5,925 nt of DNA, taken from the IMG/VR virus record IMGVR_UViG_3300010262_000127; one strand, written 5' to 3'. Both the position numbers and the translations under genes were made by a program. The DNA is from a virus. Lineage: Duplodnaviria; Heunggongvirae; Uroviricota; Caudoviricetes. The notes under the pieces are model-generated. The model made no database searches and had not been told where the DNA came from. It was given only the letters and a program-made list of their open reading frames with translations. Positions 2,642 to 5,925 of the stretch are shown in pieces. How positions within the stretch are numbered: the first letter of the stretch is position 1; each line of letters opens with the position of its first letter.

Positions 2642-3382
2642 ATGAAAAACATTCCGGCAGTTGGGGTTCTTGAACGTATTCGCAGACTTGCACCACAGGG
2701 GGCGGTTCCACCGTACCGGACGGTGGAGGAGTGGCGGGAATGGCAACTTGCTGAAGGACGAAAACGCAGCGAGGAGATTAACCGCCTGAATCATCAGGTG
2801 TGGGTTGAAAAAATCCTGAACCGTGCGGGCATCCAGCCGCTTCACAGGAAGTGCTCATTCGGGAACTACCGGGTGCAGAACGACGGTCAGCGCCATGCTC
2901 TGAGCCAGGCGAAATCCATTGCCGATGAATTGATGACCGGATGTACAAACTTCGTGTTCAGCGGTAAACCTGGTACCGGTAAAAATCACCTGGCAGCAGC
3001 GATTGGCAATCGGCTGATGGCGAAGGGGAGAAGCGTGATTATCGTCACCGTGTCCGATGTCATGAGCGTGTTGCATGACGGCTACGACAACGGCCAGTCC
3101 GGGGAAAAATTTTTACAGGAGCTTTGTGGAGTTGACCTTCTGGTCCTTGATGAAATTGGCATGCAGCGGGATACGCGCAACGAGCAGGTCACGCTGAACC
3201 AGATAGTCGACCGCAGAACGGCTTCGATGCGTAGTGTCGGAATGCTGACGAACCTGAATCACGCAGCGATGAGCACACTCCTCGGAGATCGGGTGATGGA
3301 CCGTATGACCATGAATGGTGGTCGTTGGGTGAATTTTAACTGGGAGAGCTGGCGGTCAAACGTTGGACGTCAGGGTATGTGA
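2642..3382 (+). CDS. DnaC-like replicative helicase loader (AAA+ ATPase, IstB/DnaC family), 246 aa
   Basis: Walker A GKPGTGKN (2963-2986) and Walker B LLVLDEIG are present. Extended similarity to DnaC is visible by eye (FSGKPGTGKNHLAAAI..., NQIVDRR..., GMLTNLN..., LLGDRVMDRM, FNWESWR). It follows the initiator gene with a 7-nt gap, as in lambdoid O-P-type modules. Confidence 0.9.
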   Translation: MKNIPAVGVLERIRRLAPQGAVPPYRTVEEWREWQLAEGRKRSEEINRLNHQVWVEKILNRAGIQPLHRKCSFGNYRVQNDGQRHALSQAKSIADELMTGCTNFVFSGKPGTGKNHLAAAIGNRLMAKGRSVIIVTVSDVMSVLHDGYDNGQSGEKFLQELCGVDLLVLDEIGMQRDTRNEQVTLNQIVDRRTASMRSVGMLTNLNHAAMSTLLGDRVMDRMTMNGGRWVNFNWESWRSNVGRQGM

Positions 3383-3407: not shown

Positions 3408-3836
3408 ATGGAAACTGTATTGCATGCACTGAAAGCGATGGGAAAAGCCAATTCTGTTGAACTGGCGGCGCGGCTTGATATCAGCCGTGAAGAAGTTCTT
3501 AACGAACTGTGGGAACTCAAAAAAAATGGCGTTGTTGATAAAACGGGTCACACCTGGTTTCTGGCTGTCGAAGGTGAAGCCGGGGTAACCGAAGGGCAGG
3601 CACTACAACCTGAAGCGCCGGATGTGGTAACCGAAGAGGTCGCTCCAAAAGTTACCGCAGACATGATGGTTGAGTTTATCGGTCAGGATGGTGCTAAAAC
3701 GTGTGAGGAACTGGCGGGTAAGTTCGGCGTCAGTACTCGCAAGGTTGCTTCCACGCTGGCGGTGGTAACCGCAACGGGGCGGCTGGCACGCGTTAATCAG
3801 AACGGTAAATTTCGTTACTGCATGTCGGGGGGGTAA
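3408..3836 (+). CDS. winged-helix (DUF1627-like) prophage protein, probably the 5' portion of a gene interrupted by a frameshift
   Basis: SD GAGG about 10 nt before ATG 3408. The translation shows two winged-helix-like segments (ANSVELAARLDISREEVLNELWELKKNGVV and KTCEELAGKFGVSTRKVASTLAVVTATGRL). The ORF ends at TAA 3834-3836, immediately after a G7 run (3827-3833), and the +1 frame stays open from 3769 to 4179. Confidence 0.7.
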   Translation: METVLHALKAMGKANSVELAARLDISREEVLNELWELKKNGVVDKTGHTWFLAVEGEAGVTEGQALQPEAPDVVTEEVAPKVTADMMVEFIGQDGAKTCEELAGKFGVSTRKVASTLAVVTATGRLARVNQNGKFRYCMSGG

Positions 3837-3837
3837 T

Positions 3838-4179
3838 TTACCAGCAGATCCGAAAGCCGCGCCGGTAACGAAAAATGATGGTAAGGCCTTTCCTCAGCCA
3901 GCAGGTGCTGCGTTACCAGTCCGGGAAGCCGCAACACAGGAAGAAATTAAAACAGAAACTGTGGCGGACATTGTGCAGCCGTTGCTATCGTTTACCGAAA
4001 CGCAAGCAGATGAGCTGATTTTTCCGTCCCTGCGCAGGGCAAACCTGGCGCTGCGCAGGGCGAAAAGTGATGTTCAGAAGTGGGAGCGAGTCTGCGCCGC
4101 GCTGCGGGAGCTGAACAAGCACCGGGATATTGTTCGACAGATTACTGATTCTTCCCGCCGTGTTGTATCGGAAAAGTGA
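3838..4179 (+). pseudogene. out-of-frame 3' continuation of the 3408 gene (frameshift at the G7 tract); the only in-frame start for independent translation is GTG 3961, with no SD
   Basis: The frame is open from 3769 to TGA 4177-4179 with no ATG, GTG or TTG before GTG 3961. Removing one G from the 3827-3833 run joins the 3408 frame to this frame, giving a single ORF of about 257 codons. Confidence 0.5.
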
Positions 4180-4194: not shown

Positions 4195-4590
4195 ATGGCG
4201 AAACCTTTTACACACGAACAGCGTGAAGAACTGAAGGCCCGAATTATCGGGCTGGTACGCAAAAATGAACGCATGACGATATCACAACTGGAGAGAGCGA
4301 CGGGAGCAGGCTGGCATTCAGTCAGACGTTGCCTTGTGGATGTACTGGCTTGTGGCGATTTATACATGCCCGGTAAATACGGTGTTTTTACATCAGAACA
4401 GGTGTATCGCGTATGGCGTAAGGCAGCGGAGAAAGCAACCGACCAGACATTGATTCGAAAGTTACCAGACGGAGAAATACGCCGCTACGACAGACAACAG
4501 AACATAATCTGTGGCGAGTGCCGGAAGAGTGAAGTTATGCTGCGTGTACTGGCGTTCTATCAGGGCAATTTTCAGGAGGCGGTACTGTGA
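4195..4590 (+). CDS. hypothetical prophage protein (131 aa) with a winged-helix-like N-terminal segment and a C-terminal CGEC motif
   Basis: SD GGAGG (4185-4189) lies 5 nt before the ATG. The ORF is clean and its stop overlaps the downstream start (GTGA at 4587-4590). No family recognised with confidence. Confidence 0.75.
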   Translation: MAKPFTHEQREELKARIIGLVRKNERMTISQLERATGAGWHSVRRCLVDVLACGDLYMPGKYGVFTSEQVYRVWRKAAEKATDQTLIRKLPDGEIRRYDRQQNIICGECRKSEVMLRVLAFYQGNFQEAVL

Positions 4591-5231
4591 GTGAATTAGC
4601 TATCAGGCTTCAATTGTCGCTGGCATTCGCATCAAAGGAGAATGAGATGACCACTTTTACAAAAGAGCAGTTAATCAGTCATGTTAGTGAAAATGTAAAG
4701 GCGATGAAATTTGCAGTAAAACAGACAGTATTCAAAAATTCTCTCGAGGCAATTGAGTTGGATTTAGCACTGGCCCTTGTTGCTCAGGCTTCGCTGGAAG
4801 CAGAGCCCGTGCTTTATATGAATCGATTTACCGGAAAGACATTCTCACTGGAAGAGCAACCCGGTGCTGATAAGGAACCGGAAATATACGTGCCGCTATA
4901 TGCTGCCCCGCCAGACAGCGCCGCCATGCTTCAGGCTGGAAACTTTCGGGAAAATAAGGGTTCGTCAACCAATAATTTTCGGGAAATCTCGGAAACGTCA
5001 ACCAACTATCCGGTAACTCCGGATGGTTGGATAAGCTGTAGTGAGCGAATGCCGGATGATGGTCAGCACGTAATTATTTTATGTGATGGCGCATTCGTTC
5101 TTTATGCGCAATATCGAGACGGTGAGTTTTTTGATGTAGTCCGTAATGGTGATGAATTTTTCGAAACACAGAGCCGCAATGTAACCGACTGGATGCCGCT
5201 ACCAGAACCGCCGCAGGAGGTGCGCCAATGA
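4587..5231 (+). CDS. DUF551-like phage protein (214 aa by the GTG start)
   Basis: The C-terminal region (GWISCSERMPDDGQHVIIL...VTDWMPLPEPP) matches the DUF551 signature common in lambdoid prophage early regions. The GTG 4587 start has AGGAGG 7 nt upstream and overlaps the upstream stop. An alternative in-frame start is ATG 4647 with AAAGGAG 6 nt upstream, giving 194 aa. Confidence 0.8.
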   Translation: MSELAIRLQLSLAFASKENEMTTFTKEQLISHVSENVKAMKFAVKQTVFKNSLEAIELDLALALVAQASLEAEPVLYMNRFTGKTFSLEEQPGADKEPEIYVPLYAAPPDSAAMLQAGNFRENKGSSTNNFREISETSTNYPVTPDGWISCSERMPDDGQHVIILCDGAFVLYAQYRDGEFFDVVRNGDEFFETQSRNVTDWMPLPEPPQEVRQ

Positions 5232-5311
5232 TCTGGCCTGAAGCCTTTGCAATTACAGGCGTTGCTATAGCTATTGATTTTTTAGTATATGTTATTTGTC
5301 GGTGGGGGTAA
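5228..5311 (+). CDS. small hydrophobic peptide (27 aa, MIWPEAFAITGVAIAIDFLVYVICRWG), not in the ORF track
   Basis: The ATG overlaps the upstream stop (ATGA at 5228-5231). AGGAGG (5215-5220) lies 7 nt upstream. The predicted peptide is a single hydrophobic helix with a C-terminal RWG. Confidence 0.4.
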   Translation: MIWPEAFAITGVAIAIDFLVYVICRWG

Positions 5312-5346
5312 AAACGTTCGCCGGGATTCACACCAAAGGAGGGAAT

Positions 5347-5451
5347 ATGTCGGATGATATTTCACTGGCAATGGAAGGTGCTCTGGCTGTTATTGCTGTT
5401 GTGGGCGTTTACTGCCTGGTTGTGTTTTTGATGGATCGACTAGGGAACTGA
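5347..5451 (+). CDS. small membrane peptide (34 aa, MSDDISLAMEGALAVIAVVGVYCLVVFLMDRLGN), not in the ORF track
   Basis: AAGGAGG (5336-5342) lies 4 nt before ATG 5347; stop is TGA 5449-5451. The peptide has an acidic N-terminus, one predicted transmembrane helix and a short polar C-terminus. Confidence 0.45.
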   Translation: MSDDISLAMEGALAVIAVVGVYCLVVFLMDRLGN

Positions 5452-5460
5452 ATTCATTAC

Positions 5461-5480
5461 GATATGGGAATTCCCATATC
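5461..5480. repeat. perfect 20-bp palindrome GATATGGGAATTCCCATATC
   Basis: The sequence equals its own reverse complement. It lies 10 nt after the small-ORF stop. No U-tract follows on either strand, so a protein-binding site is more likely than an intrinsic terminator. Confidence 0.6.
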
Positions 5481-5539
5481 GGGTAAAAACGGTTTGCGGT
5501 AAAGCGAGAGTTAAGTAGAATTGCTGCGGGTGCTTGAGG

Positions 5540-5575
5540 CTGTCTGCCTCGGGCATGCCACCGTAAGGCAGACAG
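5540..5575. repeat. inverted repeat (10-bp stem CTGTCTGCCT / AGGCAGACAG, 16-nt loop containing the palindrome GGCATGCC)
   Basis: Direct reading of complementary arms at 5540-5549 and 5566-5575, with an inner palindrome at 5552-5559. Neither strand has a U-tract after it. Confidence 0.4.
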
Positions 5576-5637
5576 AGAAAAGCCCCAGTTAACATTACGC
5601 GTCCTGCAAGACGCCTAACATTAATCTGAGGCCAATT

Positions 5638-5925
5638 TCATGCTAGACATATGTAGGTTAGCCTCTTACGCGCCGAAAGGCAAGGAGATGTATGGGTCCA
5701 CCACATATTGCAATTTTTATTCTCTTTTAAAATATATTCCACGGGCGTCATTAGTGCGAGCGCCTTGTGGGGTCTTTTGCTGTTATACAGCACCAGATAT
5801 TCCGCCAGCTTCTGGTTAAATAGCGCCAGATCTTCAAAGAGTAAAATCTCATTAAATTCAATAAACTGCTCTCTTAACGTCCGGTTAAAACGTTCACAGA
5901 TAGCGTTCATTTTTGGCGTGTAGGG
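5638..5925 (-). CDS. DDE transposase / integrase catalytic-core (rve-type) protein, C-terminal portion only; the gene continues beyond the window edge
   Basis: The minus-strand frame is open from the window end (..PLHAKMNAICERFNRTLREQ...YLVLYNSKRPHKALALMTPVEYILKE..) to the stop at 5638-5640. The motif ERFNRTL followed by YN..RPH.AL...TP.EY is characteristic of the C-terminus of rve-domain transposases (IS481-like by eye). The M reported at 5910 by the ORF track is an internal residue. Confidence 0.65.
   Translation of the reverse strand, partial: PYTPKMNAICERFNRTLREQFIEFNEILLFEDLALFNQKLAEYLVLYNSKRPHKALALMTPVEYILKENKNCNMWWTHTSPCLSARKRLTYICLA

Follow-up and report, generated by a model that had tools for sequence, protein, structure and literature searches.

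The window analyzed here, a 5,925-nt stretch of viral DNA (IMG/VR record IMGVR_UViG_3300010262_000127), is, judged by its sequence, the early-right region or operon of a Rac-like lambdoid prophage of E. coli. A repressor gene lies on the minus strand (440–859) and is followed on the plus strand by genes for a Cro-like protein (960–1241), a YdaT/CII-like protein (1225–1650), an O-like HTH_36 protein (1658–2635), and a DnaC/IstB-like ATPase (2642–3382). A split DUF1627 gene (3408–4179), the subject of this study, comes next, and is succeeded on the same strand by a DUF977 gene (4195–4590), a DUF551 gene that extends to position 5231, and a sok/hok leader (5528–5694) recognized by its match to the Rfam sok model. 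The DUF1627 gene sits directly downstream of the DnaC-like (YdaV/P-like) gene not only in the window but also in its four closest relatives, in phage PhiR5_2, and in the Rac prophage of K-12. At E ≤ 1e-5, NCBIfam yielded no model for the DUF1627, repressor, Cro-like, or YdaT-like proteins.

Two further features lie on either side of the split gene. Within the region of the O-like gene that encodes a repetitive peptide, a 13-nt direct repeat, CC(C/T)GATCCGTCAG, is present in two copies 21 nt apart (2132–2165), which may represent iteron-like origin repeats. At its far end, the window runs into an IS481-like element that begins at 5689 and continues past the window end, so that the window covers only 5689–5925 of it. 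The full 1,095-bp insertion sequence is found on a related contig (L008, 6282–7376) that shares the seven-G allele described below; its 362-aa transposase scores 221 bits on NF033577 (cut-off 224). The element sits exactly at the Shine-Dalgarno sequence of hokD, where it has duplicated a 6-bp target (AGGAGA), and its insertion cuts the hok ORF off from the sok/mok leader. Three metagenome contigs of diverged prophages, none of which carries the G tract, contain the same 36-nt junction between insertion sequence and hok, and this recurrence points to a target-site preference or to an insertion that is old.

A DUF1627 gene in two reading frames

The first part of the split gene is an ORF on the plus strand (3408–3836) that encodes 142 residues, starting from an ATG at 3408, which is also the annotated CDS start in relatives. 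It terminates at a premature TAA (3834–3836) located directly 3′ of a run of seven G (3827–3833), with the frame reading ...TGC ATG TCG GGG GGG TAA T... and the local sequence at 3820–3839 being GCATGTC GGGGGGG TAATTT. In an allele with six G, the same bases that make up this stop are part of GGT AAT. The +1 frame is closed by a TAA at 3766–3768 and then remains open from 3769 to a TGA at 4177–4179; its section at 3835–4179, likewise on the plus strand, corresponds to 114 further residues. This downstream frame has no usable start of its own: as the sequence-only reading had described, no ATG, GTG, or TTG occurs in the open +1 frame ahead of a GTG at 3961, and the 20 bases 5′ of that GTG (AAGAAATTAAAACAGAAACT) contain no Shine-Dalgarno-like motif. 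The 72-aa ORF that begins there (3961–4179, plus strand) is a mechanical ORF call, which some public records list as a small "DUF1627 domain-containing protein" but which, from its sequence context, is probably not translated.

Deletion of one G, the edit that the earlier reading had expected to restore a continuous ORF, does indeed yield 771 nt (256 codons plus stop), and the encoded product is identical to WP_000450874.1, a protein annotated in many genomes. In the closest complete genomes, the interval equivalent to 3408–4179 is a single 771-nt CDS for this 256-aa "DUF1627 domain-containing protein." The copy in E. coli O103:H2 12009 has the same start codon and is identical to the window gene over its 771 nt except for the extra G, and it occupies the same place in a Rac-like prophage, between the DnaC-like gene, which it directly follows, and the DUF977 gene. 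The window copy differs from it in having seven rather than six G (G7 and G6 hereafter), with the result that its ORF is broken after codon 142.

Together the two parts account for every residue of the 256-aa DUF1627 (YdaW-family) protein that Rac-like E. coli prophages encode, with no residue covered twice: the upstream ORF supplies residues 1–142 and the downstream frame residues 143–256. Aligning both halves to full-length homologs, as had been proposed, thus gives an exact tiling (142 + 114 = 256), and the claim that a frameshift at the G run has divided one gene is borne out by halves that abut exactly on the intact homolog. A single Pfam domain and a single PHROG family span the break. 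The Pfam DUF1627 profile (PF07789) is cut at 52/53, its positions 1–52 matching upstream residues 91–142 and positions 53–155 lying in the downstream frame; each part passes the gathering score of 28.1 bits by itself (93.5 bits for the upstream ORF; 216.3 bits, E 2.3e-64, for the downstream frame). The phrog_630 profile is cut at 141/143, with positions 1–141 in the upstream ORF and 143–252 in the downstream frame.

Homologs in which the halves form two separate genes would have spoken against a split gene and were looked for; what was found instead, down to ~21% identity, are single proteins of 220–267 aa that align end to end. In a collection of proteins clustered at 90% identity, 2,240 clusters matched, and the best 120 of these are nearly all 253–256 aa long, the length of the intact relatives of the window protein, with most covering 96–100% of the query. 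A scan of 1.84 billion representatives at 50% identity returned a small family of 173 clusters, whose distant members (21–50% identity) account for the length range given above. Against this one-polypeptide architecture of ~220–260 aa, the window copy retains all of the sequence, split over two frames. Because its complete domain set is divided in this way, the window copy is a disrupted member of the DUF1627 family, that is, a pseudogene. A G or C run of at least seven arises in 45% of mononucleotide shuffles of the window, and the G7 run alone is therefore not improbable; its placement exactly at the frame switch of one conserved protein family is nonrandom.

The alignment of distant homologs resolves the architecture of the intact protein into a first winged helix (residues ~1–55), a variable linker, a second winged helix (~85–140), a second variable linker rich in proline and acidic residues, and a conserved C-terminal block (~190–245) that is also seen in the distant homologs. 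The frameshift falls on the first residues of the second linker, leaving this linker and the C-terminal helical module in the downstream frame. The earlier description of two winged helices followed by a C-terminal helix is supported by profile matches and, at low confidence, by predicted secondary structure. Module 1 matches Pfam HTH_11 (residues 3–52, 26.6 bits; cut-off 25), and many family members match the MarR, TrmB, HTH_20, and HTH_24 profiles. A sequence search of the PDB with a shallow alignment gave nothing significant, whereas a deeper alignment of distant homologs gave weak to moderate matches, for module 2 only, to ADAR1 Z-domains, AspA, and ArsR/MarR proteins. An AF2 prediction (20-sequence alignment) of a protein 97% identical to the repaired one reached a mean pLDDT of 44 and a pTM of 0.22. 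As this model was too poor for a fold search, we used its secondary-structure pattern alone, which comprises two three-helix bundles and a long helix at residues 197–255.

Tract length and recurrent lesions among relatives

To place the tract among its relatives, we took a census with queries of 78–81 nt, each with 36–37 nt of exact flank on either side of the tract, and counted exact matches in complete E. coli genomes (n = 5,426). The in-frame G6 form was found in 434 genomes and represents 99% of close alleles. G7 was found in three (CFSAN027343, 99_0849, and A1) and G5 in one (RM8426), and these G7 and G5 copies are labeled "frameshifted" by PGAP; G8 was found in none. Between the window and its four closest relatives, the extra G is the sole indel in 4,470–5,646 aligned bases. 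As read from these comparisons, the ancestral tract is G6 and the window carries a +1 G insertion.

A single added base in a homopolymer also invites the explanation, left open by the sequence-only reading, that the true genome is G6 and the gene intact, the seventh G being a sequencing or assembly error. Homopolymers are classic sites of indel errors, and one base alone separates the window from intact alleles. The exact 142-aa product is, however, present on more than 20 public contigs. Among 10 such contigs listed, 7 are true G7 (two GCA, two ENA, and three Logan run assemblies); the other 3 are G6 contigs that end at the tract, and these were left out of the G7 count. In each of the seven sampled G7 assemblies, the tract reads, at the level of the consensus, as a clean G7. 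One of them, ERZ27241761 (ENA), matches the window at every one of its 5,925 bases (100% identity), and another lacks the insertion sequence and differs from the window by four SNPs. For comparison, the exact 72-aa sequence of the GTG ORF occurs on 8 contigs and the intact 256-aa protein on at least 1,000.

Because G7 is reproduced in at least seven independently assembled datasets, a one-off error is unlikely, and the best reading of these sequences is a G7 allele that is heritable in a lineage. A systematic homopolymer miscall common to assemblies of one clone may be envisaged, and in the complete O26 assemblies with G7 or G5 the neighboring DnaC-like gene is also frameshifted, a possible hint of platform error. 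The G6 sibling RM10386, however, shares that second frameshift, which is hence inherited rather than noise; nor does the window have any other indel relative to its relatives, unlike error-prone homopolymer data. We therefore regard an artifact as highly improbable, and of the causes that had been proposed it is a real mutation, and with it a pseudogene, that is favored. In the O26-type prophage itself (CFSAN027343, 99_0849, RM8426, and RM10386), the DnaC-like ATPase gene carries an extra G at a site equivalent to about window position 2698 and is annotated as frameshifted; the replication module of that prophage therefore contains at least one fixed lesion.

Three allele backgrounds include G7 copies, and each also has G6 siblings without any other difference, a pattern that indicates at least three independent origins. 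The first is the window lineage, where the gene grows from 771 to 772 nt. The second is the O26 prophage (762 to 763 nt), in which RM10386 is G6 and intact and RM8426 is G5. The third is strain A1 (750 to 751 nt), whose allele has a 21-bp in-frame deletion and whose siblings B19374 and OkiPb01684 are G6. The copies in CFSAN027343, 99_0849, and A1 have a G7 tract and flanks identical to those of the window but a gene of 762 or 750 nt and other downstream genes, with the 21-bp deletion in A1, and because their allele backgrounds differ in this way, their G7 is independent of the window lineage. Given its recurrence in three backgrounds, the G tract behaves as a slippage hot spot, like any G6 run. 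The 21-bp deletion shared by A1, B19374, and OkiPb01684 (window positions 4030–4050) is bounded by 11-bp direct repeats, CTGCGCAGGGC, and from this arrangement appears typical of slipped mispairing.

The G tract is not the only site in this gene at which the frame has been lost. An A8 tract (3519–3526, plus strand), in frame in the window, forms another frameshift hot spot among relatives, and we examined it as a control: 287 complete E. coli genomes have A7 and one (MBT-5) has A9, making its lesions far commoner than those of the G tract. The copies in O157:H7 TR01 (A7) and MBT-5 (A9) are annotated "frameshifted," and together with those of CFSAN027343, 99_0849, A1, and RM8426 they represent the same kind of lesion as in the window, a one-base homopolymer indel. 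The 287 A7 genomes, among whose displayed records are O157:H7 strains, are consistent with one event followed by clonal inheritance. In the cryptic Rac prophage of E. coli K-12, YdaW (b1361) represents a further disrupted relative, a member of the same family at the same locus after ydaV. This diverged allele is naturally truncated at its C terminus and retains both winged helices, with 57% identity over residues 1–154, where the aligned region ends; unlike in the window gene, the cause is a deletion that joined the gene to unrelated sequence and not a homopolymer frameshift. From this set of sequences, the DUF1627 gene appears to have been repeatedly inactivated in resident prophages, at homopolymers, and to be dispensable there.

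Phase variation and programmed recoding

Recurrent changes at a slippery tract could reflect slipped-strand phase variation, with a contingency G tract reversibly switching the C-terminal half or the whole gene on and off. Such a tract would be expected to occur at several common lengths among relatives and to be conserved in the family, and the gene shows neither pattern. The origin of G7 at least three times and of G5 once, in different backgrounds, can be read as a mutational switch rather than as simple decay, and the variation of the second tract, A8, points the same way. Against this, the length classes are extremely skewed (G6:G7:G5:G8 = 434:3:1:0), G7 is stable in all sampled members of the window lineage, and the 287 A7 genomes fit a single clonally inherited event. 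In an enterobacterium proficient in mismatch repair, a run of 6–7 G is short for a contingency tract.

The tract itself is also absent from most alleles of the family, which encode P-G-D-N at this site, the start of a variable linker in distant homologs. The single P-G-D-N allele that we read at the DNA level (L019) has CCG GGC GAT AAT and no G run (CCGGGCGAT; CCGGGCGATAAT). Because G6 is confined to, and peculiar to, the S/P-G-G-N allele group, the gene does not carry the G tract as a conserved feature. Tract length may vary at a low level within a culture, but we consider a phase-variable switch very unlikely, and the length distribution leaves this proposed cause unsupported.

The other mechanism that would rescue a full-length protein from G7 is programmed recoding, either by +1 ribosomal frameshifting on GGG GGG UAA or by transcriptional slippage. 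The geometry is suggestive, in that an in-frame stop adjoins the tract, as in prfB, and a tRNA-Gly slipping by +1 from GGG 3828–3830 to GGG 3829–3831 would re-pair perfectly and give the wild-type S-G-G-N. In the population, however, the in-frame G6 is the norm (99% of close alleles), and homologs are single uninterrupted ORFs in a family in which the tract is not conserved. We considered a stimulatory RNA fold and rejected it: the 106 nt around and after the slip site have a minimum free energy of −29.6 versus a shuffle mean of −30.65 (z = +0.30), and are thus no more stable than shuffled sequence. Neither a prfB-like Shine-Dalgarno sequence 3 nt upstream of the shift codon nor a separate Shine-Dalgarno-like element upstream of the tract was found. 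Seven G also fall short of the tracts of ~9 or more A/T that support efficient transcriptional slippage in E. coli.

The likeness of the window gene to prfB-type +1 frameshifting and to simple-sequence contingency loci is thus one of a slippery run beside an in-frame stop and of a tract whose length varies between strains. It differs from both in that the frameshift is not conserved, stimulatory elements are absent, and 99% of the lengths are in frame. Trace leakiness through a +1 slip of tRNA-Gly is mechanistically conceivable, and nothing indicates a programmed event. With no conserved tract and no stimulatory structure following it, the suggestion of a programmed frameshift finds no support, and we judge it exceedingly improbable.

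Consequences of the lesion and implications for the family

Taken together, the split gene is very probably a recent pseudogene in a resident prophage, produced by a slipped-strand +1 G frameshift, and not a programmed frameshift or a genetic switch. The DUF1627 (YdaW-family) gene normally yields one 256-aa protein consisting of two winged-helix modules, a variable linker, and a C-terminal helical module. Replication slippage in this lineage would then have added one G to G6, converting TCG GGG GGT AAT to TCG GGG GGG TAA. Translation would end after residue 142 and leave the linker and C-terminal module (114 codons) stranded in the +1 frame. Apart from the tract, the gene matches the intact allele base for base, and the event is therefore recent.

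At the level of the sequence, loss of the full-length protein is shown. The truncated gene may still yield a 142-aa protein that contains both winged helices, and this putative product would resemble, by analogy, the naturally truncated YdaW of K-12. The C-terminal helical module that it would lack is plausibly an oligomerization or partner-binding element. In addition, ~360 nt of untranslated mRNA would precede the DUF977 start at 4195, which may exert some polarity on DUF977 and DUF551.

A more functional reading of the same events is that homopolymer frameshifts recur because lysogens with the full-length DUF1627 protein are selected against, or because the gene is a switch that reverses at low frequency, and that the 142-aa product could retain a function, such as toxin blocking. 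The changes that would be drawn together in this way are at least three gains of a G in the G6 tract (G7) and one loss (G5), the A8-to-A7 change fixed in 287 complete genomes, one A8-to-A9 change, and the K-12 deletion. In a preprint screen, prophage genes that blocked RcaT, the toxin of retron-Sen2, were recovered, and ydaW of Rac was one of them (bioRxiv 10.1101/2020.06.22.160242). We regard this reading as unlikely and retain the simple slippage pseudogene as our interpretation.

The lesion itself is ordinary and of a kind already recognized by standard annotation pipelines. Annotation should treat both ORFs as a single frameshifted DUF1627 pseudogene rather than as two small genes. In public databases, the 142-aa and 72-aa fragments currently appear as two distinct "DUF1627 domain-containing proteins," and some PHROG families consist of fragments only: phrog_29124 (72 positions, equal to the 72-aa fragment), phrog_16668 (59), and phrog_11856 (160). 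Because pieces of pseudogenes have been deposited as proteins, family counts are inflated. Beyond annotation hygiene the split gene carries little weight, and only the repeated independent inactivation at homopolymers is of mild further interest.

As to what the intact protein does, lambda carries ren directly after its replication genes, a position that matches that of the DUF1627 gene, and module 2 has a weak Ren-like PHROG match (E 1.5e-6). This Ren-like position and weak match could guide functional work on DUF1627. For the prophages themselves, the recurrent homopolymer inactivation in E. coli implies that the gene is dispensable, or possibly disadvantageous, once they are resident.
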